A stretch of 64,000 nucleotides of DNA from Nocardioidaceae bacterium (lineage in GTDB: Bacteria > Actinomycetota > Actinomycetes > Propionibacteriales > Nocardioidaceae): the NCBI GenBank assembly GCA_035461195.1, contig DATHVS010000037.1, positions 70 through 64,069 of the forward strand, given 5' to 3'. The position numbers and the translations under genes were made by a program. The notes beneath the pieces are model-generated. The model made no database searches, was not told the DNA's origin, and worked only from the letters and a program-made list of their open reading frames with translations. Below are positions 7,192 through 23,114 of this stretch, piece by piece. How positions within the stretch are numbered: the stretch's first letter is position 1; the number at the start of each line of letters is the position of its first letter.

Positions 7192-8388
7192 TCAGTCGGC
7201 CAGTCCCTCCAGCTTGATCACCACACCGGCGTGGTCCGAGGGCCACAGGCCGGTCGCCTTGTCGCGATCACCCTTCTTGTCCCCGGTGACCTCGCCGTGC
7301 CGGACGCGGATCGTCTCCCCCGCGGCGGTGCGCGCGAAGATCATGTCGATCCGGTGGTCGAAGCCCCAGGCCCTGGTGTCGTTCACCAGCTCGCTCAGGC
7401 CCGCGGTCCACCCGCGCTGGGCCGGCCACCTCACCAGCCACATGTCCTCGAAGCCCTGGCCCACGATGAACTCGTACGGCGCCTTGTGCGCGACGGCGTC
7501 GAAGGACTTCACCGAGTCGTCGAGCGGGTCGGAGTTGCAGTCGCAGGCGATGACCGTGGTCCTGGGGGTGGCACCTGCCTCGGTCACCATCTGCACCGCC
7601 TGGGCGAGGGCGATGTCGGAGCTGAACGCCTCCAGGTGCGTGTTGACGAAGCGCAGGTCCACGCCTGCGGCGTTCTCGACGTCGACGAAGTTGTAGCCGC
7701 GGTCGAAGTTCATGGGGACGCCCGCGATCTCGACCGCGAGGTTGACGTCGTAGATCTTGTTCCCCCCGCCGACCGCCGCCAGGCCGGCGTCGGCGCGCAT
7801 GAGGATCACGTCGCGCATCGTCATCCGGACGTTGCGCGACGTCGGGTCACCGGGGTACGCCGCGAAGGCCGGCGCCTCGACGTCGGCCCGCATCCCGACG
7901 TTCACGGCCTCGTAGGAGACCCCCTCCTCCTCGAGGTCGTCGAGAAGCATCTCGAGGAAGTCGTAGTCGACGTTGGTGGCCGACGGAGCGGCGATGCCCG
8001 CAAGGTCGAGGGGCCCGCTGCGCCACAGCGCGACCTCCTGGAGCCCCACCAGGTCCGGCGCGGTGTCCGCGATCTCGTCGGCGAGGAGCCGGCTGCGCAC
8101 CGCGAAGTTCGTGCGGTCGACGATCTCGCGCGTCTCGTGGGTCGCCCGGCCCAGGGCCACGAGAATCGCGGCCTGGTCGCCGCCGGCCTCCGCAGCCTCG
8201 GTGGCGGCCCGCACGGGTCGGTTGATGTCGGCGCCGAGGTAGATGTTGCGGGTCATCACGGTCACCGAGCCCGCGTCGTCCGGTTTCGCCGCCTGGGCCG
8301 ACGTGGCGGCCAAGGGGGCGAAGGCTGTGCCGAGCAGCAGGGCGGCGAGGACCGCCCTCACACCTCGTGATCTGGGGGCATACGTCAT
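7192..8388 (-). CDS. Secreted endonuclease/exonuclease/phosphatase-family protein
   Basis: Signal peptide ending AQA; MTRN, GLQEV, NTHLE, CDCNS, RIDMIF, PSDHAGV. Confidence 0.85.
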   Translation of the reverse strand: MTYAPRSRGVRAVLAALLLGTAFAPLAATSAQAAKPDDAGSVTVMTRNIYLGADINRPVRAATEAAEAGGDQAAILVALGRATHETREIVDRTNFAVRSRLLADEIADTAPDLVGLQEVALWRSGPLDLAGIAAPSATNVDYDFLEMLLDDLEEEGVSYEAVNVGMRADVEAPAFAAYPGDPTSRNVRMTMRDVILMRADAGLAAVGGGNKIYDVNLAVEIAGVPMNFDRGYNFVDVENAAGVDLRFVNTHLEAFSSDIALAQAVQMVTEAGATPRTTVIACDCNSDPLDDSVKSFDAVAHKAPYEFIVGQGFEDMWLVRWPAQRGWTAGLSELVNDTRAWGFDHRIDMIFARTAAGETIRVRHGEVTGDKKGDRDKATGLWPSDHAGVVIKLEGLAD

Positions 8389-8543
8389 TACATTCCCTCC
8401 CTCAGGGGCTCACCCCGAGCCTCTCCCCCGCGGGCCGTCTGGACCAGAGCCCCTTCGGACCATGACGAGTGGGTAGAACGAGTTCCACTACGATCCGCGG
8501 GATCCGGCTTTCACGCCACAGCCTCAGGAGGCATGATCGTGGC

Positions 8544-9722
8544 GTGCACAGCAACCTCTCGGCCTCAGGCATCCTTGGCTCCGCGGGACGTGTCCCCCAC
8601 GTCGACACCGAGCCGCTGCTCAGCAGCGACCTGACCCTGGCCGGGCGGCGCCTGCCGTTGACGGCCACGGCGAGGATCTACGTCTGCGGCATCACGCCCT
8701 ACCTCGTCACCCACCTAGGGCACGCCTCGACGTTCGTCTGGGCCGACGTGGTCCAGTCGGTGGTCCGGCTCGCCGGAGTGGAGGTGGACACCTGCCGCAA
8801 CGTCACCGACGTCGACGACGTGCTCACCGCCGCAGCCCTCGAGCACGGCCGGCCCTACGACGAGTTCGCGCTGACCCAGGAGTTCCTCTTCGACCGCGAC
8901 ATGCGCGCCCTGGGCAACAAGGCGCCCGACCACACGCCCCACGCACGCCTCCACGTCGCCCACGTGACCCAGCTCGCCGCCGCCCTCCTCACGACGGGCC
9001 ACGCCTACGAACGCGACGGCTTCGTGTACTTCCGCGGCGACGGCGTGGCCACCCGCAGCGGCCTCAGCGAGAAGGAGGCGCTCGAGCGGTCCCGCGCCTT
9101 CGGCGACCAGCCCGACGACACCCACCGCGACTCCCCGTTCGACGTACCCGTCTGGCGACCCTCCCCCGAGGACGAGCCGGCGTGGCCGAGCCCGTGGGGC
9201 TGGGGCCGGCCCGGCTGGCACTCGGAGTGCGCTGCGATGGCCTGGGCGACGTTCGGGACCAGCGTCGACGTGATCGTCGGCGGCGAGGACCTCACCTACC
9301 CTCACCACGCCTACCAGTGCGCGATGGTTGAGGCGGCCAGCGGCGTCGCTCCCTTCGCCCGCCGGCAGGTCCACATCGGCGCCGTCCACCAGGACGGCCG
9401 CAAGATGGCGAAGTCCACGGGCAACATGACCCTCGTCCGGGACCTCCTGGCCGCCCACCGCCCGGCGGCGGTGCGTCTGATGATCGTCAACCGCGTCTGG
9501 CACCGGTCCTGGGAGTACGCCGAACGCGAGGTCGACCGGGCGGAGAAGGCCCTCGACGAGCTCTACGGGGCCGCCGGCCGCACCCACGACAGCACCGAGG
9601 CCGACGAGCAGGTCGTGACGGCACTCCTCGAGGACCTCGACGTCCCCCGGGCCGTCGACGTCGCCACCCGGGAGGGCGGCAGCGCCGCCCGCCTCCTCCT
9701 GGAGATCCTCAAGCTGCGCTGA
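8544..9722 (+). CDS. MshC/cysteinyl-tRNA-synthetase-like cysteine ligase paralog (no anticodon-binding domain)
   Basis: YVCGITPY..THLGH, NVTDVDD, GRPGWHSEC, GGEDLTYPHH, KMAKS; only ~392 aa. GTG 8544 lies 6 nt after CATGAT (leaderless-like); start uncertain. Confidence 0.8.
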   Translation: MHSNLSASGILGSAGRVPHVDTEPLLSSDLTLAGRRLPLTATARIYVCGITPYLVTHLGHASTFVWADVVQSVVRLAGVEVDTCRNVTDVDDVLTAAALEHGRPYDEFALTQEFLFDRDMRALGNKAPDHTPHARLHVAHVTQLAAALLTTGHAYERDGFVYFRGDGVATRSGLSEKEALERSRAFGDQPDDTHRDSPFDVPVWRPSPEDEPAWPSPWGWGRPGWHSECAAMAWATFGTSVDVIVGGEDLTYPHHAYQCAMVEAASGVAPFARRQVHIGAVHQDGRKMAKSTGNMTLVRDLLAAHRPAAVRLMIVNRVWHRSWEYAEREVDRAEKALDELYGAAGRTHDSTEADEQVVTALLEDLDVPRAVDVATREGGSAARLLLEILKLR

Positions 9723-9827
9723 GGGCGCATTGTGACGCAGGTCCAGTGTGTGGACCACCCCTGATGGGTATAGAACCATGGACCGGCCGCACCCGGCGGC
9801 CTCTTGCCCGGGGAAAGGTTCCAAGAC

Positions 9828-11123
9828 GTGGACTGGCTTCTCGACACGCGACACGACGACGCGACGAAGGCTGCCGTGCAGGCGGTGGGCGAGCACCTGC
9901 TGCGGCACGCCACGGACGAGTCGCGGGTCCCCGCTGCCGTCGCGGCGGTCGACAGCGCCCTCCGCTCCGCCGAGGGAGACTTGCTCTGGCTGCATCTCGA
10001 CTGGAGCCGCGTTCACCCGACCCTGCACCAGCGCCCCGTCGGTCCTGACGCCGCCCCGTCCCCCGATGACGGATTCGGGGCGATCCACGCCTCCGAACGC
10101 ACCACCTTGACCACGGCCGCCACGGGCGAGCCGACCTCAATCGACCTCACGGTCCCCAGGGAGGTCGTCATGAACTTCGACCCCGATGTAGCCGTCCTCG
10201 TAGATCTCGACCCCATCGGCGACGGAGCGTCGGCCGCCACAGTCGCCCTCGCCGCCGCTGCGGAGTCGCACCCGGTGGCCTCGCCCGACCAGGTGGCCGC
10301 GGCGGCCGGCGCGATGCTCGCGGACGCCACCCTCCGCGAGGAAGCCCATCTGAAGGATGCGGACGCGGCGATCGGCCACTTCGGACGCGTGCACGAGGCG
10401 CTCGGCGGCTCCTACCAGCGCGTCCACCTCGACGACCACGGTTTCGAGCTGCTCGTCGACAGGAGCCCTTTCGGCGCCGCCGTCTGCCAGATCCCCTCGC
10501 TCGCCCGCCTCACCGAGGCCATCGTCGGCCGGCTGGCGGCGCGCGTGCACGGCAAGGCCACGGTCGTCCACGACGAGAGCATCGCCCTCGGCGACCCCGC
10601 TGACCGGCTCCAGGTCCTCTTCGGCGACGTCGAGGACGAGGTCTGCGGCAGCACCTACCAGTGGCCGCCGGCGGGCACCCGCGAGTCGTCGGAGCCCTCC
10701 CCGCGCCTGGAGATGACGGTCTCCCTGCCGCGGCAGAGCCACAGCGTGCCGGTCATCCGGCGGCTGGCCGCCCAGATCCTGAGGGCCTTCGGCGTCTCGG
10801 GCGACAGCATCCACGACGTAGAGCTCGCGATATCCGAGGCGTGCGCCAACGTCATCCAGCACGCCATCGACAGCGAGGGCTACGAGGTGAGCATCGAGCT
10901 CGCCGCCGACCGGTGCGCGATCACGGTGCTCGACCGCGGCGATGGGTTCGACGCGACCCAGGTCCGGGACCAGGCGGACATCGACGCGGAGAGCGGGCGC
11001 GGGCTCAGCCTGATGCGCGCGCTCGTCGACAACCTCAACTTCGTCAGCGAACCCAAGGTCGGTGCGGTCGTGCACATGGTCAAGCAGCTCCACTACGACG
11101 ACAGCCACCCGTTCAGGAGGTGA
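9828..11123 (+). CDS. Composite signalling protein: MetOD1-like domain plus C-terminal RsbW-like (HATPase_c_2) kinase/anti-sigma domain
   Basis: C-terminal ELAISEACANVIQHA, DRGDGF, ESGRGLSLM; central SPFG..PSL..G.LAA..G.A.V..ESIA.GDP resembles MetOD1 (recalled); GAAAGG RBS 9 nt before GTG 9828. Confidence 0.7.
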   Translation: MDWLLDTRHDDATKAAVQAVGEHLLRHATDESRVPAAVAAVDSALRSAEGDLLWLHLDWSRVHPTLHQRPVGPDAAPSPDDGFGAIHASERTTLTTAATGEPTSIDLTVPREVVMNFDPDVAVLVDLDPIGDGASAATVALAAAAESHPVASPDQVAAAAGAMLADATLREEAHLKDADAAIGHFGRVHEALGGSYQRVHLDDHGFELLVDRSPFGAAVCQIPSLARLTEAIVGRLAARVHGKATVVHDESIALGDPADRLQVLFGDVEDEVCGSTYQWPPAGTRESSEPSPRLEMTVSLPRQSHSVPVIRRLAAQILRAFGVSGDSIHDVELAISEACANVIQHAIDSEGYEVSIELAADRCAITVLDRGDGFDATQVRDQADIDAESGRGLSLMRALVDNLNFVSEPKVGAVVHMVKQLHYDDSHPFRR

Positions 11124-11448
11124 GTGCCCCGCTGAGGGCGCCTCGCCCGGCGAGGTCCTCGGCGAGGAACTCCCGGAGCAGGTCCACGGCCTGGACGATC
11201 TTCTGGCTGCGGAGCGAGTAGAAGACGTTGCTGCCCGAACGGCGCGCGGAGACGATCCCACGCTCGCGGAGGACGGCGAGGTGCTGGCTGGCGTTGGACT
11301 GGGTGAAGCCGAGGGCGTCGCAGATGTCGCCGACGCTGAGCTCCCGGTCGCGCAGCTCGTTGATGATCAGCAGTCGTTTCGGGTCGGCGATCGCCTTGCA
11401 CACCCGGGCGTGGAGCTCCTGCAGCTGTGCAGCCACGTCCTGATCCAT
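11113..11448 (-). CDS. ArsR/SmtB family transcriptional regulator
   Basis: KAIADPKRLLII, SVGDI, QSNASQHLAVLRERGIV, RSGSNVFYSL. Confidence 0.92.
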   Translation of the reverse strand: MDQDVAAQLQELHARVCKAIADPKRLLIINELRDRELSVGDICDALGFTQSNASQHLAVLRERGIVSARRSGSNVFYSLRSQKIVQAVDLLREFLAEDLAGRGALSGALTS

Positions 11449-11477
11449 GCGTCCTCCCCTCGCCTCAGCAAGGCAAC

Positions 11478-11492
11478 AGTGTAGTTCCGGAC
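11478..11492 (-). promoter_or_regulatory. Putative -10 (TACACT) with GTCCGGAAC motif upstream of ArsR gene
   Basis: Minus strand GTCCGGAAC-TACACT; near copy at 13457-13472. Confidence 0.4.
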
Positions 11493-11518
11493 CGGCGGGA
11501 TGCGACCCACCGGCTGTT

Positions 11519-11878
11519 TCAGGTCTCGACCACCACCACGAAGACGAGGGCTGAGGCCGAGAGCAGCACGAGGCCGCCGGTGAGGAGCCTGGTCAGACCG
11601 TGCGCCAGAGGTGAGCGTCCTTCCTCGACCCGGCGCACTGCCGTCACGTAGCGCCGCTCACCCATCACGAGCAGCGCCAGGGCCAGGCCGAGCCCGCCCA
11701 GCCCGGGCGCGGCAACCACCAGGTCGCTGTCGGCGAGGTGGACGAGCAGGGCCGAGAACGCCGCGAGCGCGAGTGCGGTGCGCTGCCAGGCCATCGCGGT
11801 GCGCTCCGCGGCCAGCCCCACGTCGAGGGACGGCTCGGAACGCCGGCGATGACCCAGCACCCTGGTCAGCACGCTCAC
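11519..11878 (-). CDS. DUF202 (YidH-like) membrane protein
   Basis: GLAAERTAMAWQRTAL motif, 3 hydrophobic helices. Confidence 0.85.
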   Translation of the reverse strand: MSVLTRVLGHRRRSEPSLDVGLAAERTAMAWQRTALALAAFSALLVHLADSDLVVAAPGLGGLGLALALLVMGERRYVTAVRRVEEGRSPLAHGLTRLLTGGLVLLSASALVFVVVVET

Positions 11879-11886
11879 GGGGCGAC

Positions 11887-12264
11887 TTACCCCTGCACCA
11901 GGTCGTAGGCGACGAGGCCGAGGGCGGCGAAGGCGGCCAGCGCGAGCGCGGCCGCGACCAGCCTCGGCACCGGGGAGTGCGGGAGCCGCTCCCCGAGCCG
12001 CATGGCCCGCTCGTTGCGCTCCCAGTGCGCGTAGGCCACCGTTGCCACGACGCCGCCGAGCCCGACCAGCACGAAGCCCAGCAGGTGCCTCACCACCGAG
12101 AGCCCCGGCACGAACTGCACCACCGCGACGCCCGCGGCCATCAGTGCCAGGGCGGTGCGGACCCAGGCCAGGAAGGTACGTTCGTTGGCCAGGGTGAAGC
12201 GGTAGTCCGGGGTCTCACCCACCTCGTGCAGCGGGGTCCGCCCCGACCTGCGGGCTGTCGCCAT
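11887..12264 (-). CDS. DUF202 (YidH-like) membrane protein
   Basis: PDYRFTLANERTFLAWVRTAL motif. Confidence 0.9.
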   Translation of the reverse strand: MATARRSGRTPLHEVGETPDYRFTLANERTFLAWVRTALALMAAGVAVVQFVPGLSVVRHLLGFVLVGLGGVVATVAYAHWERNERAMRLGERLPHSPVPRLVAAALALAAFAALGLVAYDLVQG

Positions 12265-12268
12265 CTGC

Positions 12269-13408
12269 TCAGACCATCGACGTCGACGCGGCGCACTGGT
12301 TCTTGCCCACGTCGAGCACGTCGATCTCGTCCTCCGGCGGGGTGAGCTGGCCGGCGTTCACCTGACGGATCGTGTCGTAGAAGTCGGGGGCCGCAGGCAG
12401 CGAGGTGACGATCTCCTCGACGAACTTCTCCATCGCCTTCTCGTTGAGCAGGGTGGCAGTGAAGACGTCCTCGAGCGTGGTGACGACCAGCCCCTCGTCG
12501 TTGACCTCCTCGGGGATCGTCCAGTGCGCCGGGGCGATGATCGTCTGGGGGTCGAGGGGGCGAAGGCGCTCGTGGCAGCTGTGGAAGAGGTCCCGAGCCA
12601 GCTCCTCGGCCTGGCCGGTGAGGTCGGGGCGGCCCAGGCCGCGGACGAACACGGTGTCGCCGACGAGGAGCACCTTCTCGGCGACCAGCAGCGCGATGGT
12701 GCCGGGCGTGTGGCCGGGCAGGTGCATGCTCATCACCCGAACCTCGGCGGAGCCGAGGTCGAGGACGTCGCCGTCCTTGAGGGGGACGTTCGGGAACGGC
12801 ACGACCCCGCCGGCGTCCTCCGGGGGCAGGTGGTAGTCGACGCCGAGCTCCCGCGCCAGGGCGGGTCCGCCGCTGATGTGGTCGGCGTGGACGTGGGTGT
12901 CGACGACGTGGGTCACGGTCATGCCGTGCTCCTTGGCCGTGTCGAGGTAGGGCTGCGGGTCGCGGGTGGGGTCGACGATGACGCAGCTCTGGCCGGGGAC
13001 GCCGACGAGGTAGGACAGGCACGCCTTGGCCGGGCGCTGGAACTGCCACACACGTACCTCGCCCGGGAGGCCGGTGATCTCGAAGGGCACGAGCAGGCGG
13101 TTCCACGCATCGGTCCCTCCTTCGAGGGACCGGGTGTGCTTGCCGAGCTCGGCGAACTCCTCGGCGACGAGGGCCGACCCGTTGCCCTGGCCGCAGATCA
13201 CGACGGCCCCCTCCTTGGCCCGCTCGGCCTCGTCCTCGAGCTCCTCCATCACTCGGTAGACCGGCACGTTACGCGTCGGCACGGGTCGGCGGCCCTCGAC
13301 CGGGGCGGCCTCGAACTCGTCGACGTTGCGCACGTCGAGGATCTCGCTGACCCGGCCTTCGGCGATCTCCTGGAACAGCTCGAGCGGGGTGATGGTCATC
13401 TCGGCCAC
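12269..13408 (-). CDS. Rhodanese-persulfide dioxygenase fusion (YrkH/CstB-like MBL-fold)
   Basis: N-terminal LDVR...VICGQGNGS rhodanese; DTHVHADHISG, PGHTPG, GDTVF, C-terminal GKNQCA. Confidence 0.88.
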   Translation of the reverse strand: MAEMTITPLELFQEIAEGRVSEILDVRNVDEFEAAPVEGRRPVPTRNVPVYRVMEELEDEAERAKEGAVVICGQGNGSALVAEEFAELGKHTRSLEGGTDAWNRLLVPFEITGLPGEVRVWQFQRPAKACLSYLVGVPGQSCVIVDPTRDPQPYLDTAKEHGMTVTHVVDTHVHADHISGGPALARELGVDYHLPPEDAGGVVPFPNVPLKDGDVLDLGSAEVRVMSMHLPGHTPGTIALLVAEKVLLVGDTVFVRGLGRPDLTGQAEELARDLFHSCHERLRPLDPQTIIAPAHWTIPEEVNDEGLVVTTLEDVFTATLLNEKAMEKFVEEIVTSLPAAPDFYDTIRQVNAGQLTPPEDEIDVLDVGKNQCAASTSMV

Positions 13409-13456
13409 GGGTGGTCTCCCTGGGGAAAATTGGGTCTTGTTATATGCGCAAGCACG

Positions 13457-13477
13457 AATGTAGTGTCCGGACTCACA
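13457..13477. promoter_or_regulatory. Divergent promoter element: minus-strand -10 TACATT overlapping a CRP/FNR-like site AGTGT-CCGGAC-TCACA
   Basis: One perfect TCACA half-site with N6 spacing (13462-13477); GTCCGGAC motif shared with 11484-11492. Confidence 0.4.
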
Positions 13478-13518
13478 CTTGGCAACGCCTTCTTCTCGAG
13501 GAAAGGGAACGCGCAGCG

Positions 13519-14019
13519 ATGGCTGACAGCACGTCCGAGGACGTACCCGAGAGCATGACGATCGTCGCCTGGAGCGGTGACCTGGACAAGATGTGGCCGA
13601 CCCTGATCCTGGGCTCGACCGGTGCCGCCTACGGCATGCAGACCACCATCTTCTTCACCTTCTGGGGGCTCTACCCCCTCGTCCGCGACGACGTCCGGAT
13701 CACCGGCGACAACGCGATGACCAAGGCCCTGGCCGGGATGAACCGGCCCGGCATGAGCCACATGAAGCTCTCGAAGCTCAACATGGCCGGGGCCGGGGCG
13801 TGGATGATGAGGAAGCTGGCCAAGGACCACAAGGTGGCCAGCCCGAAGGAGCTGGTCGAGATGTGTACCGAGCTCGGGGTCAACCTCTGGCCCTGCGAGA
13901 TGACCATGGACCTCATGGGCCTTCGCCAGGACCAGCTCATCGAAGGGGTCGGTGAGCCGGTCGGCGCCGCGACGGCGCTCTCGGAGATGAGCAAGTCGCA
14001 GATCAACCTCTTCATCTGA
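13519..14019 (+). CDS. DsrE/DsrF-like sulfur relay protein (YrkE/DsrE2 type)
   Basis: IVAWSGDLDK, TIFFTFWGL, WPCEMTMDLMG, VGAAT. Confidence 0.9.
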   Translation: MADSTSEDVPESMTIVAWSGDLDKMWPTLILGSTGAAYGMQTTIFFTFWGLYPLVRDDVRITGDNAMTKALAGMNRPGMSHMKLSKLNMAGAGAWMMRKLAKDHKVASPKELVEMCTELGVNLWPCEMTMDLMGLRQDQLIEGVGEPVGAATALSEMSKSQINLFI

Positions 14020-14084
14020 CCCGCCACGACGGCCACGGCCGTCGTACCTCTCACCCACGAAACCGGCGAAGGAGCCACCCCGTC

Positions 14085-14318
14085 ATGGAGTACACCATCG
14101 ACCTCGTCATCGACGCCAAGGGCCAGAAGTGCCCCATGCCCGTGCTGCTGACCTCCCGCGGCATCAAGAAGATCGAGTCCGGGCAGGTCATGGTCGTCGA
14201 GGCGACCGACAGCGGTTCGAAGAGCGACATCCCCTCCTGGGCCAAGGACACGGGCAACGAGCTGATCGAGCAGAGCTCCGAGGACGGCGTCTACCGCTAC
14301 GTCATCCGGAAGAAGTAG
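14085..14318 (+). CDS. tusA: TusA-family sulfurtransferase
   Basis: IDAKGQKCPMP, ATDSGS..DIPSW. Confidence 0.9.
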   Translation: MEYTIDLVIDAKGQKCPMPVLLTSRGIKKIESGQVMVVEATDSGSKSDIPSWAKDTGNELIEQSSEDGVYRYVIRKK

Positions 14319-14323
14319 TCCCG

Positions 14324-15853
14324 GTGCAGTACGGATTCGCGATCGACCAACGCACCTGCATCGGCTGTCACGCCTGCACGGTCGCTTGCAAGACCGAGAA
14401 CGACGTGCCCCTGGGGCAGTTCCGCACCTGGGTGAAGTACGTCGACAGCGGCGAGTTCCCCGACACGACCCGCTCCTTCGGCGTGATGCGGTGCAACCAC
14501 TGCACCGACGCACCGTGCGTCAAGATCTGCCCGACCCAGGCGCTGTTCAAGCGTGAGGACGGCATCGTCGACTTCGACAGCGACCGGTGCATCGGCTGCA
14601 AGAGCTGCATGCAGGCCTGCCCGTACGACGCGATCTACATCGACGCGCAGTCCAACACCGCCGCCAAGTGCAACCTGTGCGCGCACCGGGTCGACAACGA
14701 CCTGGAGCCGGCCTGCGTGGTGGTCTGCCCGACCCACTCCATCTGGGTGGGCGACCTCGACGACGCGACGAGCGGTATCGCGAAGCTGGTGCGCACCGAG
14801 GAGACCCAGGTCCGCACCCCCGAGCAGAACACCGGCCCCAACGTCTTCTACCTCGGCGCCGACCAGGCGGTGCTCGACCCGCTGGCGGCGCCGGTGGACG
14901 ACACCTACATCTGGGCCAAGCCGGACCCACACCGGCTCGAGACCGCCGGCGACCTGCCCGGCAGCCCGCGGACGAAGGCCCGCACCACGCTGAACACCGC
15001 GCACCCTCGGCCGTGGGGCTGGAAGGTCGTCACCTACCTGTGGACCAAGGGCATCGGCGCCGGTGCCCTGGCGGTCGCAGCTCTGGCGGTCATCCTCGGC
15101 ATCGACCTCGGGGTCCTGGGTGACTACGTCGCCCCGGCCCTGGCGATCTTCGGGGCGGCGACGACCGGGGCGCTGCTGGTGCTGGACCTGAAGCGCCCCG
15201 AGCGGTTCCTGTACCTGTTCCTGAAGTCGAACTTCTCTTCGTGGCTGGTGCTCGGGGGATACGTCCTGACGCTGTTCACAGGCGGGTCGATCCTCTGGAT
15301 CCTGGCTGCGGCACTGGACATCGGCTGGGCGATGACGACGTTGGCGTGGCTGGCGGTCCCCTTCTCGGCGCTCATGGCCGGTTACACCGCGTTCCTGTTC
15401 GGCCAGGCCGAGGGCCGCGACCTGTGGCAGTCGCCGGTGCTCTTCTGGCACCTGCAGGCGCAGGCCGTGATGGTCGGTGCGGGCATCCTGGCGGTCGCTG
15501 GTCTGTTCCTGGACCTCTCGGACGCCGCGTGGACGCTGGTCATCGCCTCGTTCGTGATCGCCACGATGGCGCACCTGGTGATCCTCCTCATCGAGTACGC
15601 CGGCAAGCACAGCAGCCGGCAGGCCGCGACCGCGGCGCACGTGATCACGAGTGGCCGCTACGCCAAGACGTTCTGGATGGGCAGCGTGGTCCCGACCGTG
15701 CTGGCCGCCGCCGTCGGGGTGGTGGCGTGGCTGATGGGTGTCGACAGCACCTCGATGGTGCTGGTGGCGATCGCCGGCCTCGTCGTCCAGCCGGCGCTGC
15801 TGGCCTACGAGAGCGTCTTCGTCCGCGCGGGCCAGGACATGCCGCTGTCATGA
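14324..15853 (+). CDS. Fused 4x[4Fe-4S] ferredoxin and NrfD/PsrC-type membrane anchor (PsrB-PsrC-like)
   Basis: CIGCHACTVAC, CNHCTDAPCVKIC, CIGCKSCMQAC, CNLC..CVVVC, then WGWKVVTYLW, DLKRPERF and ~8 TM helices; GTG start 14324. Confidence 0.9.
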   Translation: MQYGFAIDQRTCIGCHACTVACKTENDVPLGQFRTWVKYVDSGEFPDTTRSFGVMRCNHCTDAPCVKICPTQALFKREDGIVDFDSDRCIGCKSCMQACPYDAIYIDAQSNTAAKCNLCAHRVDNDLEPACVVVCPTHSIWVGDLDDATSGIAKLVRTEETQVRTPEQNTGPNVFYLGADQAVLDPLAAPVDDTYIWAKPDPHRLETAGDLPGSPRTKARTTLNTAHPRPWGWKVVTYLWTKGIGAGALAVAALAVILGIDLGVLGDYVAPALAIFGAATTGALLVLDLKRPERFLYLFLKSNFSSWLVLGGYVLTLFTGGSILWILAAALDIGWAMTTLAWLAVPFSALMAGYTAFLFGQAEGRDLWQSPVLFWHLQAQAVMVGAGILAVAGLFLDLSDAAWTLVIASFVIATMAHLVILLIEYAGKHSSRQAATAAHVITSGRYAKTFWMGSVVPTVLAAAVGVVAWLMGVDSTSMVLVAIAGLVVQPALLAYESVFVRAGQDMPLS

Positions 15854-15919
15854 CCCTCCCGACGGCGACACCGCGATGGCCAGGCCGCACACCCCTCAGA
15901 TCTTCTGGAAGGACTTGTC

Positions 15920-18796
15920 ATGACGGCTGAGACCGAGCGCGAGACGGCGCAGGTCCCGATGCCCGGGGCCCGCTCGCACGAGCGGCTGCGCAACTACCCG
16001 CCGCCGGAGGACTGGGACGCCCACGTGGAGTACGACTCCCGGTCCCACCCGAAGAAGGTGGCCCGCACCTACTCCCTGATCCCGACGATCTGCTTCAACT
16101 GCGAGTCCTCGTGCGGCCTCCTGGCGTACGTCGACCAGGACGACCTCTCGGTCAAGAAGTTCGAGGGCAACCCGGCGCACCCGGGCTCGCGCGGCCGCAA
16201 CTGTGCGAAGGGGCCCGCGACGATCAACCAGGTCCACGACCCCGAGCGGATCCTGTACCCGCGGAAGCGGGTCGGCGAGCGTGGCTCCGGCCAGTTCGAG
16301 CGGGTCTCGTGGGAGGAGGCGCTCACCGACATCGGGGGGCGCATCCGCCGGGCGATCGTCGAGGGCCGCAAGGACGAGGTGATGTACCACGTCGGCCGGC
16401 CCGGTGAGGACGGCTTTGTGGAGCGGGTGCTCCAGGCCTGGGGGGTCGACGGCCACAACAGCCACACCAACGTGTGCTCCTCGGGCGGTCGCACCGGCTA
16501 CACCCACTGGATGGGCTACGACCGGCCCTCGCCGGACTACGCCAACGCCAAGGCGATCCTGCTGCTGTCGTCCCACCTGGAGACCGGGCACTACTTCAAC
16601 CCGCACGCGCAGCGGATCATGGAGGCCAAGGCCAACGGCGCGAAGCTGGTCGCCATGGACCTGCGGCTGTCCAACACCGCGTCGCACGCGGACCTGTGGA
16701 TCGCGCCGTGGCCGGGCAGCGAGGCGGCGATCTTCTTGTCGGTGGCCTCCTACCTGCTGCGCACCCGCAAGATCGCCAAGGACTACCTCCGTCGCTGGGT
16801 GAACTGGGACGTCTACATGGAGCGTCTCCACCCCACCGACCCGCGCAACGACTTCGAGCTGTTTCTCGAGCGGCTGACCGAGGACTACGCGCAGTACACC
16901 TTCGAGTACGCCGCAGCCGAGGCGCACGTCCCGGTCGAGCAGGTCGAGGAGCTGGCCCGCATCGTCGCCGACGCCGGCACCCGGCTGGCCACGCACACGT
17001 GGCGCTCGGCCGCGGCGGGCAACCTCGGCGGCTGGCAGATCACGCGCAGCCTGTTCTTCCTCAACGTGCTCACCGGCAGCGTCGGGACCGTCGGCGGCAC
17101 CCACCCCAACGGCTGGGACAAGTTCATCGCGCACTTCCCGGAGATGCCCGAGGCCAACGAGGAGTGGAGCGAGTTCCTGTGGCCACAGGAGTACCCGCTG
17201 ACCACCAACGAGATGTCGATCCTGCTGCCGCACCTGCTCAAGGACGGTCGTGGCAGCGGGCACCTCGAGGTGTACTTCAGTCGCGTCTACAACCCGCTGT
17301 GGGTCAACCCCGACGGGTTCACCTGGATCGACGTGCTGAAGGACGAGTCCAAGATCGGTCTGCACGTGGCGCTCACGCCGACCTGGAGCGAGTCGGCCAC
17401 CTTCGCCGACTACGTCCTGCCGATGGGCCACGCCTCGGAGCGCCACGACACGATGTCGTTCGAGACCCACGCCTCGAAGTGGATCGCCTTCCGCCAGCCG
17501 GTGGGCCGGGTGGCCATGGAGAAGCGCGGCATGCCCTACCAGGACACCCGGGACGGCAACCCCGGCGAGGTCTGGGAGGAGAACGAGTTCTGGTTCGACC
17601 TGTCCTGGAAGATCGACCCGGACGGCTCCCTCGGGATCCGGAGGTACTTCGAGTCCAAGGAGCGTCCGGGCGAAAAGATGACCCAGGACGAGTACTACGA
17701 CATCCTCTTCGCCAACAGCGTCCCGGGCCTCCCCGAGGCGGCCGAGGCGCAGGGCATGACGCCACTGCAGTACATGCGCAAGTACGGCGTGTTCGAGGTC
17801 GCCAAGGAGGTCTACCGGCTCGACGAGCGCCCCCTGACCGAGGCCGAGCTCGCGGGGGCCGAGCCCGACGAGAGAGGCGTGCTCCGCAAACCGGTGACCC
17901 TGGAGTCCCAGCCGCCGCTGGTCGGTGAGGCCGGCGCCGTGGGCCTCGTCCAGGAAGACGGCTCGAAGGTGCAGGGCTGGCTCTCCCCGTCGCGCAAGCT
18001 CGAGCTGTACTCCACGACGCTGGCCGACTGGGGCTGGCCTGAGTACGCCACGCCGGGCTACATCGAGTCCCACGTCTCCGCGAAGCGGATCGACCGCAGC
18101 AGCTCGGAGTTCGTGCTCATGCCGAACTTCCGCCTGCCCACGCTCATCCACACCCGCTCGGGCAACGCGAAGTTCCTCAACGAGATCGCCAACACCCACC
18201 CGCTGTGGATGAACAAGGACGACGCCGCGCAGATGGGCGTCAAGACCGGGGACCTGGTCCGGCTGACCACCGAGATCGGCCACTTCGTCGCCCGCGTCTG
18301 GGCGACCGAGGCGATCCGTCCCGGCGTCACCGGCCTGTCGCACCACATGGGCCGCTGGATGCAGGAGGACCACCCCGGCAGCCGCTGGGTGATGGGCAAG
18401 GTCAAGCTCGACCGGTCCGACGACGGTATCTGGAAGCTCCGCTACACCGACGGCGTCAGGCCCTTCAAGAGCGAGGACCCCGACTCCGAGCGGATCTACT
18501 GGGACGACCCGGGGGTGCACCAGAACCTCGCCTTCCCGGTCCAGCCGGACCCGGTGTCGGGCATGCACTGCTGGCACCAGAAGGTGCGCATCGAAAGGGC
18601 TCGCGAGGGCGACAGGTACGGCGACGTCGAGGTCGACGTGAACAGGTCGCGTGAGGTCTACAAACGGTGGCTGGCGATGACCCGCCCCGGCCCCGGCCCC
18701 GACGGGCTGCGCCGGCCGGAGTTCATGATGCGGCACGTGACCCCGAAGCGGTCGGCGTACCGCGTCGCCACGGCCGGTGCCGGAGGGAACGCCTGA
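15920..18796 (+). CDS. Mo-bisPGD (DMSO reductase family) oxidoreductase catalytic subunit, Psr/Ttr/Soe-like, no Tat signal
   Basis: CFNCESSC..NCAKG Fe-S motif, HDPERILYP, HTNVC putative Cys ligand, ADYVLP, C-terminal binding domain; no RRxFL leader. Confidence 0.9.
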   Translation: MTAETERETAQVPMPGARSHERLRNYPPPEDWDAHVEYDSRSHPKKVARTYSLIPTICFNCESSCGLLAYVDQDDLSVKKFEGNPAHPGSRGRNCAKGPATINQVHDPERILYPRKRVGERGSGQFERVSWEEALTDIGGRIRRAIVEGRKDEVMYHVGRPGEDGFVERVLQAWGVDGHNSHTNVCSSGGRTGYTHWMGYDRPSPDYANAKAILLLSSHLETGHYFNPHAQRIMEAKANGAKLVAMDLRLSNTASHADLWIAPWPGSEAAIFLSVASYLLRTRKIAKDYLRRWVNWDVYMERLHPTDPRNDFELFLERLTEDYAQYTFEYAAAEAHVPVEQVEELARIVADAGTRLATHTWRSAAAGNLGGWQITRSLFFLNVLTGSVGTVGGTHPNGWDKFIAHFPEMPEANEEWSEFLWPQEYPLTTNEMSILLPHLLKDGRGSGHLEVYFSRVYNPLWVNPDGFTWIDVLKDESKIGLHVALTPTWSESATFADYVLPMGHASERHDTMSFETHASKWIAFRQPVGRVAMEKRGMPYQDTRDGNPGEVWEENEFWFDLSWKIDPDGSLGIRRYFESKERPGEKMTQDEYYDILFANSVPGLPEAAEAQGMTPLQYMRKYGVFEVAKEVYRLDERPLTEAELAGAEPDERGVLRKPVTLESQPPLVGEAGAVGLVQEDGSKVQGWLSPSRKLELYSTTLADWGWPEYATPGYIESHVSAKRIDRSSSEFVLMPNFRLPTLIHTRSGNAKFLNEIANTHPLWMNKDDAAQMGVKTGDLVRLTTEIGHFVARVWATEAIRPGVTGLSHHMGRWMQEDHPGSRWVMGKVKLDRSDDGIWKLRYTDGVRPFKSEDPDSERIYWDDPGVHQNLAFPVQPDPVSGMHCWHQKVRIERAREGDRYGDVEVDVNRSREVYKRWLAMTRPGPGPDGLRRPEFMMRHVTPKRSAYRVATAGAGGNA

Positions 18797-19935
18797 TGAG
18801 CCTGCTCTCTCGCCGCCGACCCGCCGTCGAGGTCGACCTCGCCGCGGTGCGGACCGCGCTCGGCACGGTCGAGGATCCCGAACTGCACCTGCCTCTGGAC
18901 GAGGCGGGCATGCTCGGGGACCTCGACGTTGACCGGTCGGGCACCGTCAGGGTGAGCGTCAAGCTCACCACGCCCGCCTGCCCGATGAAGGACACCCTCG
19001 CCCGCGAGGTCACCGAGGCCGTGAGCAAGGTTGCCGGCGTCGAGCGGGTCGAGGTCTCCTTCGGCGCGATGAGCGAGAACGAGAAGATGCGTCTCGCCCA
19101 GCGCCTGCGCGGTGACAACCCCGACGGTGGCGGCCACCCGTTCGGGGTCGACTCGCAGACCCAGGTCTACGCGATCGCCAGCGGCAAGGGCGGCGTCGGG
19201 AAGTCCACCGTCACCGCGAACCTCGCGGTCGCGCTCGCGAACCAGGGCAAGCGGGTGGGCGTCCTCGACGCCGACGTGTGGGGCTACTCGATCCCCCACC
19301 TGTTCGGCGTACGCCGGGCGCCGATCGCGATCAAGGGGATGATGCTCCCGGTCGAGGCCCACGGCGTCTCGCTCATGTCGGTCGGCTTCTTCGTCAAGGA
19401 CGAGGAGCCGGTCGTCTGGCGCGGCCCGATGCTCCACAAGGCGCTCGAGCAGTTCCTCGGCGACGTCCACTGGGGCGAGCTCGACGTGCTGCTCATCGAC
19501 CTCCCGCCCGGGACCGGCGACATCACCATGTCGCTGCTCGAGCTCGTGCCGGACGCGGCCCTCATCGCGGTGACCACGCCGCAGCCCGCTGCCCAGACGG
19601 TGGCGGAGCGGGTGGGCAGGATGGCTCGCAACGCCCGCATGCCCGTGGCCGGCGTCATCGAGAACATGTCGGCGCTCGTGTGCGGGTCGTGCCACGAGAG
19701 CACCGCACTGTTCGGGTCGGGTGGCGGGGAACGGCTCGCCACGGCGATCGACGCGCCTCTGCTCGGGCAGGTGCCGCTCGACCTCGAGCTGCGCGAGGGC
19801 GGTGACGCCGGGGTCCCGGCGATGGTCTCGGCGCCCGGCTCGCACTCGGCACAGGAGCTACGGCGTGTCGCAGCCGCCCTGCCCGTCGTACGCCGGAGCC
19901 TGGTCGGCCGCTCCCTACCGCTCTCGGTCGTCTGA
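18796..19935 (+). CDS. mrp: Mrp/NBP35 (ApbC) Fe-S cluster carrier ATPase
   Basis: N-terminal DPE..LTTPACP, SGKGGVGKST, WRGPM, DLPPGTGD, ENMS..CGSC; TGATG overlap with Mo enzyme. Confidence 0.92.
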   Translation: MSLLSRRRPAVEVDLAAVRTALGTVEDPELHLPLDEAGMLGDLDVDRSGTVRVSVKLTTPACPMKDTLAREVTEAVSKVAGVERVEVSFGAMSENEKMRLAQRLRGDNPDGGGHPFGVDSQTQVYAIASGKGGVGKSTVTANLAVALANQGKRVGVLDADVWGYSIPHLFGVRRAPIAIKGMMLPVEAHGVSLMSVGFFVKDEEPVVWRGPMLHKALEQFLGDVHWGELDVLLIDLPPGTGDITMSLLELVPDAALIAVTTPQPAAQTVAERVGRMARNARMPVAGVIENMSALVCGSCHESTALFGSGGGERLATAIDAPLLGQVPLDLELREGGDAGVPAMVSAPGSHSAQELRRVAAALPVVRRSLVGRSLPLSVV

Positions 19936-19946
19936 GCCACGGCGGC

Positions 19947-21215
19947 ATGCACACCTGGCAGGTGCGGGACTTCGTACCCGAGGACCTCGAGGATCTCGTC
20001 CGCCTCGACGACGCCTCGACCACCACGAGACAGCCGCCGTTGTTCGGGCTGCCCGACGTGGTCGCCGCGCTCACGGCCCGCCAGCCTGCCGTGGTGGCGG
20101 TGGCCCACGGGCGGATCATCGGCTCCGCGGTGAGCCGGGTCGAGGGCGATCGCGCCTGGCTGCTCCGGCTGGCGCTCGCACCCGACTGGCGCGGGAGGGG
20201 GCTCGGCAGCGCGCTCCTCGGCGCGCTCGAGCACCGGCTGGTCGCGTCGGGGGTACGCCGGCTGAGTGCGATCCTGCCCGAGGCGGAGACCGGCACCCAG
20301 GCCTTCGTCAACAGCGGTTTCACCAGAAGGACGGGCCTGACGTACTTCGAGAAGACCGAGATGGTCACACCGCACACCGCGAACCTTCTCTCCTCGCTGG
20401 GCGGCAGCGTCCCGGCCGCAGGGCTGTGGGACCAGGTCGCGGGGATGGCCACCGAGAAGGAGCTGGTCGAGAGGCGGCTGGTGCTGCCGCTCGCGCGGCC
20501 GGTGGAGGCCCACGAGCACGGCGTCGAGCCACCCCGCGCCGTCGTCCTCTTCGGCCCACCCGGCACCGGCAAGACCACCTTCGCCAAGGCGGTGGCGAGC
20601 CGGTTGTCGTGGCCGTTCGTGGAGCTGTTCCCCAGCCGTCTCGCTGCTGAGGACGGCGGTCTCGCGGCGGGCATCGGCGCGGCTTTCGCCCGGATCGCCG
20701 AGCTCGACAACGTGGTGGTGTTCATCGACGAGGTCGAGGAGATCGCCGCGGCACGCGAGGCCGGAGGCCCTTCGGTCGCGGTGGTCAACGAGCTGCTGAA
20801 GGCCCTCGTCGGCTTCCGGGAACGCGACGGGCGGCTGCTCGTCTGCGCCACCAACTCCGTGCGCGCCCTCGACAGCGCCTTCCTCCGCCACGGCCGGTTC
20901 GACTACGTGCTGCCCATCGGCCCACCGGACGAGACGGCCCGCGCCGCGATGTGGACCAGCCACCTCGCCCGCACCGAGGACGACGTCGACACGACCGCCC
21001 TGGTGGGGGCGAGCACGAACTTCACGCCGGCCGACATCGCTCACGCGGCGCGTACGGTGGCCCAGAAGACCTTCGAGTGCACCGTGGACACCGGCCGCCG
21101 CTGTCGCGCGACCACCGCGGACTACGTGAGCACGCTCCAGGCAATGCGGCCCACGCTCACCGAGGAGATGGTGACGGCGTTCGACGAGGACATCACGGAG
21201 TTCGCGCGCACGTGA
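19947..21215 (+). CDS. GNAT acetyltransferase-AAA+ ATPase fusion
   Basis: RLALAPDWRGRGLGSALL (acetyl-CoA motif A); GPPGTGKT, FIDEVE, CATN, RHGRFD. Confidence 0.85.
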   Translation: MHTWQVRDFVPEDLEDLVRLDDASTTTRQPPLFGLPDVVAALTARQPAVVAVAHGRIIGSAVSRVEGDRAWLLRLALAPDWRGRGLGSALLGALEHRLVASGVRRLSAILPEAETGTQAFVNSGFTRRTGLTYFEKTEMVTPHTANLLSSLGGSVPAAGLWDQVAGMATEKELVERRLVLPLARPVEAHEHGVEPPRAVVLFGPPGTGKTTFAKAVASRLSWPFVELFPSRLAAEDGGLAAGIGAAFARIAELDNVVVFIDEVEEIAAAREAGGPSVAVVNELLKALVGFRERDGRLLVCATNSVRALDSAFLRHGRFDYVLPIGPPDETARAAMWTSHLARTEDDVDTTALVGASTNFTPADIAHAARTVAQKTFECTVDTGRRCRATTADYVSTLQAMRPTLTEEMVTAFDEDITEFART

Positions 21216-21231
21216 GCCGACGAGGAGGACG

Positions 21232-22686
21232 ATGACCCCGGTCAGCCGCCGCACCGTGCTCGGGCTGGGTGCGCTGGGGGTCGCGACTGCCGCTGTCGGA
21301 ACGGCAGGGGTGCTCACCTTGACCCGCCCGTGGCGCTCGACCCGTGACACCGTGGCCGGCGGGTCCCTGCGCGAGCCTGCGGTGCTCCGCAGCGAGGACG
21401 GCTCGCTCGAGGTGACCCTGACCGCGCGTTCCGGTGTCCACGAGGTCGCGGGCGTCCGGGCGCGCACCCTCGGCTTCAACGGCGGGCTGCCCGGCCCGAC
21501 CCTCGTCGTACGCCCCGGCGACCGGCTCCGGATCCGTCTGGTCAACGAGCTCGACGAGCCCACCAACCTCCACGTCCACGGTCTCCACGTCTCACCGAGG
21601 GACAACGGTGACAACGTCTTCGTCGAGGTGGCTCCCGGCGGGTCGTTCGACTACGAGCACCGGTTGCCCGAGGACCATCCTCCGGGTCTGTACTGGTACC
21701 ACCCGCACCACCACGGCATGGTCGCCGACCAGATCTACGGCGGCCTCTTCGGCGCGATCCTCGTGGAGGACCCCGAGCCGGTCGCGGTCGCCGCTGACCG
21801 GCTGCTCGTCGTCTCCGACATCACCCTCGACCCCGACGGCGGCGTCCTCCGGCCCTCCCCCATGGAGCAGATGATGGGCCGTGAGGGCGCGCTGGTGCTC
21901 GTCAACGGCCAGGCCAGGCCCCACGTCGAGGCCCGCAGCGGGGAGCGTCAGCGGTGGCGGGTGCTGAACGCCTGCACCTCGAGGTTCCTGTCTCTTCGGC
22001 TCGACGGGCACGAGCTGCACCTGCTCGGCATGGACGGCGGCCGCCACGCCGAACCCGTGCGCACCGAGCAGGTGCTCCTCGCCCCGGGCAACCGGGCGGA
22101 CCTGCTCGTCACCGTCGGCCGCGGCGACGGAGTCCTGCGCGCAGTCCCCTACGACCGCGGCGGCATGGGCATGGGGATGGGCGGAATGATGCGGGACACG
22201 CAGGAAGGGCCGGTGCGGCTGCTCGACCTCCGGGTCACCGGCGCGGCGGAACCGCCGCCCGGACTGCCCGTGTTCGCGGCTCCCCGGGACCTGCGCGACG
22301 AGGCCGTGGACGCCGACCGCGACCTCGTCCTGGCCATGGGAATGGGGATGGGGATGGGCCGGATGAGCTTCACCATCGACGGCCGGGAGTTTGCGGCCGA
22401 CCGGGTCGACCAGGCGGTGACGGCCGGTTCGGTCGAGGAGTGGACGATCCACAACGACAGCCCGATGGACCACCCCTTCCACCTGCACGTCTGGCCGATG
22501 CAGGTCCTCGAGGAGAACGGCCGCCGGCCTGACCGACCCACCTGGCTCGACGTGGTGAACGTCCCCGCCCGGGGCAGCGTGCGGATGCGGGTCGCCTTCG
22601 ACGGGTTCGACGGCCGCACGGTCTACCACTGCCACATCCTCGACCACGAGGACCGCGGGATGATGGGTGTGGTCGAGGCGACCTAG
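21232..22686 (+). CDS. Tat-exported multicopper oxidase with Met-rich inserts
   Basis: SRRTVLG leader; HVHG, WYHPH, HPFHLH, HCHILDHEDRGMM; MGMGMG segments. Confidence 0.95.
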   Translation: MTPVSRRTVLGLGALGVATAAVGTAGVLTLTRPWRSTRDTVAGGSLREPAVLRSEDGSLEVTLTARSGVHEVAGVRARTLGFNGGLPGPTLVVRPGDRLRIRLVNELDEPTNLHVHGLHVSPRDNGDNVFVEVAPGGSFDYEHRLPEDHPPGLYWYHPHHHGMVADQIYGGLFGAILVEDPEPVAVAADRLLVVSDITLDPDGGVLRPSPMEQMMGREGALVLVNGQARPHVEARSGERQRWRVLNACTSRFLSLRLDGHELHLLGMDGGRHAEPVRTEQVLLAPGNRADLLVTVGRGDGVLRAVPYDRGGMGMGMGGMMRDTQEGPVRLLDLRVTGAAEPPPGLPVFAAPRDLRDEAVDADRDLVLAMGMGMGMGRMSFTIDGREFAADRVDQAVTAGSVEEWTIHNDSPMDHPFHLHVWPMQVLEENGRRPDRPTWLDVVNVPARGSVRMRVAFDGFDGRTVYHCHILDHEDRGMMGVVEAT

Positions 22687-22697
22687 AATCGGCGGCG

Positions 22698-23060: not shown

Positions 23061-23114
23061 GGGGTGGTCCTTGCGCCACCGACCAGCACGTTTCGAACCG
23101 ATGAAGGAGAACAC

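Follow-up and report, generated by a model that had tools for sequence, protein, structure and literature searches.

Persulfide dioxygenases (PDOs) and desulfonating enzymes release sulfite inside the cell, and for many heterotrophs, Gram-positive ones included, we know of no enzyme identified as removing it. The known cytoplasm-facing sulfite:quinone enzyme is SoeABC, which occurs in Allochromatium vinosum, Aquifex aeolicus, and Roseobacters and belongs to taurine regulons (PMC8076601, PMC5320631); its SoeC subunit is reported only from Proteobacteria, a few Clostridia, and Aquificae (PMC8076601). Metagenomic surveys find PDO widespread in Actinobacteriota, Gemmatimonadota, and related phyla and SoeABC rare or undetected (PMC12345210), and sulfite oxidation in Rhodococcus is reported as unresolved (PMC8557817). 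Another complex, 'FqoABC' (template CT0494), is uncharacterised and has been found in Actinobacteria (59 species), Chloroflexi (48%), and Chlorobi (PMC8076601), and PSRLC3 of green sulfur bacteria, to which CT0494 belongs, has been put forward by Frigaard and Dahl as a system that oxidises sulfite (cited in PMC6338057). Here, we analyse a locus at positions 11113-21215 of a 64,000-nucleotide stretch of DNA (contig DATHVS010000037.1; hereafter the window) from a soil-metagenome Nocardioidaceae-like genome with a guanine-plus-cytosine (GC) content of ~71% in the window. The locus encodes a molybdenum complex that is probably a cytoplasm-facing sulfite:menaquinone oxidoreductase, completing a route from persulfide through sulfite to sulfate that would be controlled via a conserved operator. 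In our best reading, this complex is a functional analogue of SoeABC and not an orthologue.

The locus consists of two divergent operons (Table 1). The leftward operon encodes, in order, a rhodanese-PDO fusion, two DUF202 membrane proteins (a and b), and an ArsR-type regulator; the rightward operon encodes DsrE, TusA, a ferredoxin-NrfD fusion, a molybdenum-bis(pyranopterin guanine dinucleotide) (Mo-bisPGD) subunit, and Mrp. All ten genes named in an earlier sequence-only reading of this DNA are present, as judged by third-position GC and by Pfam/NCBIfam matches above curated cut-offs, and the coupling which that reading described, of a TusA/DsrE relay and rhodanese-PDO to a cytoplasm-facing quinone-type Mo complex, stands as a divergent, co-regulated unit. 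The products would form a two-operon, repressor-controlled system that disposes of cytoplasmic sulfane sulfur and feeds the electrons into respiration. TusA, DsrE, and the rhodanese domain would carry persulfide sulfur on conserved cysteines and hand it, as a low-molecular-weight persulfide, to the fused PDO for oxidation by O2 to sulfite. The Mo-bisPGD subunit would then convert sulfite to sulfate at the cytoplasmic face of the membrane, and two electrons would reach menaquinone in the fused NrfD anchor by way of five [4Fe-4S] clusters, namely FS0 and the four of the ferredoxin; menaquinone is assumed to be the acceptor because it is the actinobacterial quinone. Mrp would mature the Fe-S clusters, the DUF202 pair (SulP or TauE in other genomes) would export the oxyanion product, and an ArsR-type repressor bound to ATATGCGCA-N6-AATGTA, which overlaps both divergent promoters, would be released by reactive sulfur species. 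We infer the substrates, catalytic direction, quinone, exporter role, and regulator-operator pairing alike.

The Mo subunit carries an FS0 [4Fe-4S] cysteine motif and, in alignment, has Cys186 at the position of the Mo ligand Cys173 in Thermus PsrA; the sequence DGHNSHTN-[VI]CS was invariant across 12 diverse family members that we aligned. The partner protein begins with a PsrB-like ferredoxin domain containing sixteen cysteines in four cluster motifs (PDB match to PsrB, 2VPW_B, E 5e-50), which a linker of ~100 residues joins to ~8 transmembrane (TM) helices of an NrfD anchor with a quinone site, and the loop charges of the anchor agree with an N-in topology by the positive-inside rule. We set its start at GTG 14324, 6 nt past the TusA stop codon, rather than at 14129, and that of DsrE at 13519. 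No signal peptide, twin-arginine (Tat) or other, was found in the Mo subunit or the iron-sulfur (FeS) domain, in agreement with the earlier description of the enzyme as Tat-less. Because both lack a signal and the FeS domain is fused to the N-in end of the anchor, the catalytic dimer is predicted to face the cytoplasm. Among relatives, a true Tat signal (RRTFLK) was present only in an Azoarcus outgroup that is 30% identical, and the 'Tat-like' motifs flagged in 16 relatives by a loose regular expression proved to be ERRY(M/L)L(V/I)PT just ahead of the FS0 motif and not signals. In an AlphaFold model of the Mo subunit (predicted TM-score, pTM, 0.79), the nearest folds were ArrA and PsrA (18-19% identity), followed by other Mo-bisPGD enzymes down to 14%, with none closer; PsrA was among the best solved matches (E 4e-29; TM-score 0.75, normalised to the target). 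The ATG of Mrp at 18796 shares one base with the Mo stop codon (TGATG), and Mrp is thus translationally coupled to the Mo gene.

The FeS-NrfD and Mo genes, often with Mrp, define a large unnamed family that spans many phyla and also occurs on plasmids; the locus is not peculiar to one organism. The closest 120 Mo-subunit homologues are 68-100% identical, come from many actinomycete orders, and bear generic annotation, with no SoeA name among them under Joint Genome Institute (JGI) naming. In genome scans, the FeSNrfD-Mo pair turned up in Nocardioides, Intrasporangium, Rhodococcus, Micromonospora, Actinomadura, Mycobacterium sherrisii, and Pseudonocardia, and further in Acidimicrobiia, Nanopelagicales, Chloroflexus, and Thermomicrobium. 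Homologues at 53-59% identity occur in Gemmatimonadota, Acidobacteriota, Planctomycetota, Myxococcota, Binatia, SAR324, and Deinococcales, and plasmids of haloarchaea (Halobacteria) carry a fused FeSNrfD-Mo-Mrp trio. The core is found on a Thermomicrobium roseum megaplasmid, and the linear plasmid pRHL3 of Rhodococcus jostii RHA1 carries the whole two-operon locus, gene for gene. The same arrangement, in register, was present in ~37 of 80 genomes found via the Mo subunit and in 19 of the 20 loci with adequate flanks that were reached via the PDO, a recurrence far beyond chance. Thus, DsrE, TusA, and PDO co-occur with the Mo enzyme in many genomes, and the lack of co-occurrence that the sequence-only reading had named as speaking against it is not what the neighbourhoods contain.

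We next consider the genes around the core, for which all genes within 10 kb were clustered in 84 Actinomycetota/Chloroflexota loci (set A), with 80 loci from other phyla as a second set (set B); gene calls in the compared loci were heuristic. The Mo gene has the fused FeS-NrfD gene upstream of it in 80 of the 84 loci of set A and in 68 of the 80 of set B. Mrp directly follows the Mo gene in 48 of the 84 loci and also in Natrinema, and a NarJ/TorD-like chaperone stands in for it in Chloroflexota and Gemmatimonadota. Neighbours in set A included PDO of two architectures (51 loci), DsrE (39), TusA (39), SulP proteins of the sulfate-permease family with STAS domains (22), TauE/SafE (8), SauS (5), and Xsc (2), together with recurrent GntR/UTRA regulators, flavoproteins resembling sulfide:quinone oxidoreductase (SQR), and rhodanese-YgaP. 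At least one sulfite producer or sulfur-oxyanion transporter was a neighbour in 65 of the 84 loci, and SulP followed the Mo gene in 28 of the 80 loci from other phyla. Two neighbours reached equivalog level, SauS in L029 (777 bits; cut-off 600) and Xsc in L058 (840 bits; cut-off 676); in L069, the gene immediately before the core encodes a taurine-type ATP-binding cassette (ABC) binding protein, and on a plasmid of the haloarchaeon Halomarina, 8 kb separate xsc from a family member. Subclades with PDO, Xsc, and SulP contexts are interspersed among one another (65-72% identity), and this suggests a shared activity. Cytoplasmic sulfite, or its product sulfate, is the one metabolite that the PDO, Xsc, and SulP/TauE contexts share, and it is for this reason that we favour a sulfite:menaquinone oxidoreductase. 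Where the earlier reading had left the substrate as sulfite or polysulfide/tetrathionate, the context points to sulfite over the other two. In Actinomadura madurae (L083 and L084, positions 2500-9974), genes for a class-I fumarase-like alpha/beta pair (PF05681/PF05683), TauE, GntR, and a nitrate/taurine-type ABC transporter come before the core, and this set may be an undescribed desulfonation route feeding sulfite to the complex.

The most direct comparison with SoeABC comes from sulfonate clusters. A plasmid of Azospirillum sp. TSH58 (L174), reached by way of Xsc synteny, carries TctCBA-SauS-SucC-SucD-SoeA-SoeB-SoeC-hyp-Xsc, with a Mo subunit of 998 residues, an FeS subunit of 251, and a DmsC-type subunit of 321. 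Five actinobacterial clusters keep orthologous SauS (56-60% identity) and SucC/D (53-61%), with Xsc (46%) within the flanks of L029 and L058 and TctA/C within those of L029 and L045. All five have FeSNrfD-Mo(-Mrp) in the slot that SoeABC occupies in Azospirillum. Their Mo subunits are 27-32% identical to SoeA over partial length only, and tblastn found no SoeC match in any of the five clusters.

Placement of the Mo subunit among known enzymes also separates it from SoeA. Every curated Mo-enzyme model scored far under its cut-off (NCBIfam PhsA, 161 vs 694 bits; TtrA, 93 vs 1750; Fdh-alpha, 125 vs 666), and the window protein was 25% identical to PhsA, 27% to DmsA, 22% to FdnG, and 23-24% to six SoeA-family proteins. 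These SoeA representatives are the Azospirillum protein and its homologues and not the characterised A. vinosum or Aquifex SoeA; homologues of the Azospirillum protein at 70-72% carry the JGI name 'sulfite dehydrogenase (quinone) subunit SoeA' (P0289 and others), and the match of the window protein to it is 24% over roughly the first third only. In a neighbour-joining tree of these divergent sequences with 100 bootstraps, the window family was monophyletic in 99 of 100 replicates and SoeA in 100 of 100, the two were exclusive sisters in 0 of 100, and the window family grouped (96) with uncharacterised enzymes whose B and C subunits are unfused. From the sub-threshold models, the 22-27% identities, and this tree, the Mo subunit is, as far as sequence can place it, a separate deep lineage of the superfamily and not a member of the SoeA, Psr/Phs, or formate-dehydrogenase families. 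The earlier label 'Psr/Soe-like' therefore stands for the architecture but not for the clade. Formate dehydrogenase was rejected as an identity because an invariant Cys-Ser occupies the position where FdnG has Sec-His, in addition to its low model score, and matches from Ralstonia, Caballeronia, and Phaeobacter that were tried as SoeA candidates were unrelated enzymes of 730-1140 residues.

Some relatives depart from these patterns. P0287, labelled as originating from an Actinomycetota metagenome-assembled genome (MAG), is a bona fide SoeA-family protein with 71% identity to the Azospirillum one, and some actinomycetes may carry canonical SoeABC beside or instead of the window family. Mo subunits of the family at 53-59% identity have no ferredoxin/NrfD gene in their flanks in L149, L160, L163, and L086 and may be orphan catalytic subunits or assembly or binning artefacts; L149, from a Luminiphilus MAG, was considered as an A-B-C SoeABC and rejected as an orphan A subunit with neither B nor C in its flanks. 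P0147 (L165, 6001-8748), the nearest unfused relative, has B-C-A order, 32% identity, and LAGAG where the metal-ligand cysteine is expected, and may be a non-catalytic Mo-subunit-like protein; a word-indexed homologue search with this outgroup returned only P0147 itself.

Sequence features of the partner proteins fit the handling of persulfide. The rhodanese-PDO fusion best matched 3TP9 (E 2e-30), CstB 3R2U (4e-20), and ETHE1 4CHL in the PDB. Its single rhodanese domain is N-terminal (residues 10-104), the motifs DTHxHADH (here DTHVHADH), PGHTPG, GDTVF, and PAHW are kept in 21 orthologues, and Cys69 of the rhodanese domain is conserved in 95% and Cys369 of the C-terminal NQCAAS in 100%. This C-terminus (window 12269-12300) forms a G.NQCAAS motif, with the cysteine invariant in 21 orthologues, that may be a mobile persulfide carrier; we know of no description of such a tail in CstB-type enzymes. 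TusA has an invariant Cys16 (KCPMP motif; 28 orthologues) and scores 59 bits against the NCBIfam E. coli TusA equivalog (cut-off 78) and is therefore not an E. coli TusA orthologue. DsrE scores 87 bits against NCBIfam DsrE2 (cut-off 210), best matches 2QS7 and 3PNX, and keeps Cys126 in 100% and Cys116 in 92% of orthologues. The only PDB relatives of DUF202 a are the channel-forming TM domains of yeast Vtc1 (8I6V, 7YTJ; E 2e-4). The DUF202 pair sits between ArsR and PDO in 18-21 of 35 relay-type loci, and a SulP permease fills exactly this slot in L026, L031, L032, and L034, which suggests the pair as a candidate channel or exporter for sulfur oxyanions. In two Nanopelagicales-like loci (L057, 1813-2742; L067, 5410-6312), the ArsR-PDO slot holds a protein of ~300 residues with no Pfam match. 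A Nocardioidaceae-type locus (L199, 6636-8869) keeps ArsR, both DUF202 genes, Rhd-PDO, DsrE, and TusA, after which a CstB-like PDO-rhodanese replaces the FeSNrfD-Mo-Mrp genes.

The region between the operons contains the element ATATGCGCA-N6-AATGTA at 13442-13462, its single occurrence in the window. Matches were found in 28 of 165 loci, where shuffles gave an expectation of 0.8, and 27 of the 28 lie within the PDO|DsrE intergenic region of ArsR-type loci. The element overlaps the -10 hexamer of a leftward sigma-70-like promoter (TTGCCA-17-TACATT, 13485..13457), the only promoter-like match in 11000-21400, and falls within the spacer of a weaker rightward promoter, TTGTTA-18-TAGTGT, that we read from the sequence by eye. 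We regard the element as a putative operator of the ArsR protein, which is the presumed repressor of both operons and accompanies the relay-type locus in 34 of 84 loci. Cys17 of ArsR is invariant in 31 orthologues, and Cys43 is present in 35%. ArsR was rejected as a BigR/SqrR equivalog because its score against the BigR model is below threshold (63.5 bits; cut-off 155) and the cysteine pair is not conserved. The core operon of Thermomicrobium starts with the gene for a CsoR-family protein with C..C and without the copper-ligand histidine, which, going by published fingerprints, we take to be CstR-like. Regulators of these two kinds would fit the sensing of reactive sulfur.

Several points weigh against a sulfite:menaquinone oxidoreductase. 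The functions of all family members are read from sequence and context, and the Mo subunit falls outside the SoeA clade, so function is not transferable by homology. Neighbour counts are raw, with no measured background frequency, and come from phylogenetically related loci, so they are not independent events; moreover, no sulfur-linked neighbour lies in the flanks of roughly one in five set-A loci and one in two set-B loci. SulP adjacency could reflect import, of sulfate or molybdate, and not export. Rhodanese-PDO fusions such as CstB are reported to yield thiosulfate, not free sulfite. No RNA runs contained the window sequence, and matches were confined to soil-metagenome DNA runs. Finally, dsrE and tusA are in an operon with the Mo complex and not with the PDO, and two Chloroflexota loci have them after the Mo gene and lack a nearby PDO, a placement that could mean that the enzyme acts on carrier-bound sulfur.

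This last point leads to the alternative that fares best, in which the Mo complex would oxidise the TusA/DsrE persulfide directly, to thiosulfonate or sulfite, passing electrons to menaquinone independently of O2, with the PDO as a parallel aerobic route. Such an enzyme would be a third cytoplasmic sulfur-oxidising system beside rDsr and sHdr, plasmid-borne and in soil heterotrophs. The tight dsrE-tusA-FeSNrfD-Mo-Mrp operon, with its 6 nt between tusA and FeS-NrfD, speaks for this idea; TusA/DsrE directly follow the Mo gene in the two PDO-less Chloroflexota loci (L074, L080) and accompany the core in L085, L087, and L134, and in known systems these proteins hand sulfur to an oxidising enzyme (PMC11094781). 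The same core at 65-72% identity, however, has no TusA/DsrE in more than half of loci, it occurs in Xsc/SauS sulfonate clusters, whose only sulfur intermediate is free sulfite, and the relay and PDO module can occur without it (L199). We consider direct oxidation of carrier sulfur unlikely on this balance. On the same evidence, the core does not depend on the relay through which the sequence-only reading drew its path.

A reductive role is also unlikely. An enzyme that faces the cytoplasm and uses quinol to reduce polysulfide, thiosulfate, or tetrathionate, in the manner of Psr, Phs, and Ttr, would clear excess sulfane sulfur as H2S, and PsrA, PsrB, and ArrA are indeed the nearest solved relatives by sequence and fold, the Mo ligand is a cysteine as in PsrA, and NCBIfam PhsA and TtrB are among the best, although sub-threshold, matches. 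Nevertheless, the PhsA and TtrA scores and the identity to PhsA given above are low, the O2-dependent PDO and the Xsc/SauS and SulP/TauE neighbours fit an oxidative sulfite sink, and making H2S in the cytoplasm beside a persulfide dioxygenase would be a futile cycle. A non-sulfur substrate with coincidental sulfur neighbours, for example formate as in the tentative 'FqoABC' formate:quinone oxidoreductase of Calisto and Pereira or another oxyanion, is very improbable, for although some database entries name family members 'formate dehydrogenase', the taxonomic spread of 'FqoC' resembles that of the window family (PMC8076601), and the locus adjoins a copper-resistance island, the invariant Cys-Ser replaces the Sec/Cys-His dipeptide of formate dehydrogenases, their models score low, and sulfur-linked neighbours recur in unrelated phyla and different pathway contexts.

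Table 1. Features of the locus, in window coordinates.
Feature	Position	Strand	Basis or remark
ArsR/SmtB-family regulator	11113..11448	-	Last gene of leftward operon; HTH_5 58 bits, NCBIfam HTH_metalloreg 88 bits
DUF202 membrane protein b	11519..11878	-	PF02656 53 bits; ~3 TM helices (hydrophobic segments)
DUF202 membrane protein a	11887..12264	-	PF02656 71 bits
Rhodanese + type-III (CstB-like) persulfide dioxygenase fusion (Rhd-PDO)	12269..13408	-	Rhodanese + Lactamase_B domains
Divergent control region, 110 bp	13409..13518	.	Between PDO and DsrE genes
DsrE2-like sulfurtransferase (DrsE_2)	13519..14019	+	PF13686 158 bits
TusA sulfur carrier	14085..14318	+	Pfam TusA 81 bits vs cut-off 28.6
Fer4_11 + NrfD fusion	14324..15853	+	Pfam domains; NrfD PF03916 70.7 bits
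Catalytic Mo/W-bisPGD subunit, 958 aa	15920..18796	+	Molybdop_Fe4S4, Molybdopterin, Molydop_binding domains
Mrp/ApbC-type Fe-S cluster carrier (DUF59 + ParA/NUBPL)	18796..19935	+	ParA 301 bits, FeS_assembly_P 66 bits
GNAT-AAA	19947..21215	+	GNAT acetyltransferase fused to AAA+ ATPase

The last gene in Table 1, GNAT-AAA, had been counted as part of the system. Because it recurs in only ~4 of ~190 loci (2 of 80 in the Mo-subunit set), we reject it as a component and place it outside the conserved unit; a few close relatives (L003, L181, L189) keep it at the same position. Directly downstream, at 21232-27511, lies a copper-resistance island encoding a Tat-signal multicopper oxidase (CueO-like), a CopM metallochaperone, an F510_1955-type glycosylhydrolase, a RicR/CsoR copper repressor of the C-H-C type, and a CopA P-type ATPase. 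On the RHA1 plasmid, the flanks of the locus also contain genes for a heavy-metal ATPase and a cation transporter together with a CsoR-like gene, and a copper-sulfide link is conceivable from these shared flanks. On the other side, a 439-residue protein with a C-terminal RsbW-type anti-sigma kinase domain (9804-11123) overlaps the convergent ArsR gene by 11 bp at its 3' end, and a divergent MshC/CysS-like ligase (8469-9722) scores below both equivalog cut-offs (253 vs 485 and 241 vs 340 bits). In 12 of 84 loci, a homologue of this ligase lies no more than 10 kb from the Mo core, which may hint at a link to mycothiol or another thiol cofactor for the PDO.

In our literature searches, we found no paper that describes the Mo family in Actinobacteria as a sulfite dehydrogenase or characterises any member, in keeping with the earlier reading, which knew of no characterised actinobacterial example. 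If the complex does oxidise sulfite, it would close the pathways of heterotrophic sulfide oxidation and sulfonate mineralisation in several abundant soil, freshwater, and marine phyla, tie both to energy conservation, and provide a marker gene missed by present sulfur-cycle annotation (KEGG K21307, NCBIfam). RHA1 is genetically tractable and carries the identical locus on a plasmid, which makes the question directly testable there.

The relation to known systems differs from module to module. The cst operon of S. aureus (CstR, CstA, CstB, and SQR) shares with the window locus a CstB-type PDO with rhodanese, TusA-type carriers, a thiol-based repressor, and a divergent layout. In contrast to the C-terminal rhodanese domain(s) of CstB, the window PDO has one N-terminal rhodanese domain; its regulator is of ArsR type, with one invariant cysteine in helix 1 and without the BigR cysteine pair; and a respiratory Mo complex, absent from cst, is attached. 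Psr and Phs resemble the window complex in having a PsrB-type four-cluster subunit, an NrfD-type anchor, and a cysteine metal ligand. Unlike Psr (Thermus thermophilus, PDB 2VPW-2VPZ) and Phs, however, the window Mo subunit has no Tat signal, which would place it on the opposite face, and has ~200 extra residues; identities are 19-25%, and the genomic context is oxidative, not reductive. PSRLC3/'FqoABC' of green sulfur bacteria (CT0494-0496), compared here by published description, is likewise an uncharacterised NrfD-anchored Mo complex, and the window family may be the same. PSRLC3 is described with three separate subunits, whereas B and C are fused in the window family, and the formate assignment of 'FqoABC' is at odds with the window active site; comparison of the NrfD domain with published residue lists for CT0494 (FqoC) and aq_1231 (SoeC) gave chance-level matches only.

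SoeABC resembles the window complex in several respects. Both complexes have a Tat-less Mo-bisPGD subunit of ~960-1000 residues with FS0 and with Cys-Ser at the metal-ligand position, a four-cluster ferredoxin, a haem-free quinone anchor, and a cytoplasmic orientation, here predicted from sequence, and the two families share sulfoacetate/taurine (SauS-SucCD-Xsc) clusters and a C-terminal DPV[ST]G..W motif. They differ in the anchor, which is a separate DmsC-type protein (PF04976) in Azospirillum SoeC and an NrfD domain (PF03916) fused to the ferredoxin in the window complex, and in gene order, which is A-B-C in SoeABC and BC-A(-Mrp), with Mrp or a NarJ-like chaperone, in the window family. If our preferred reading is correct, two distant Mo-bisPGD lineages would have been recruited to the same step.

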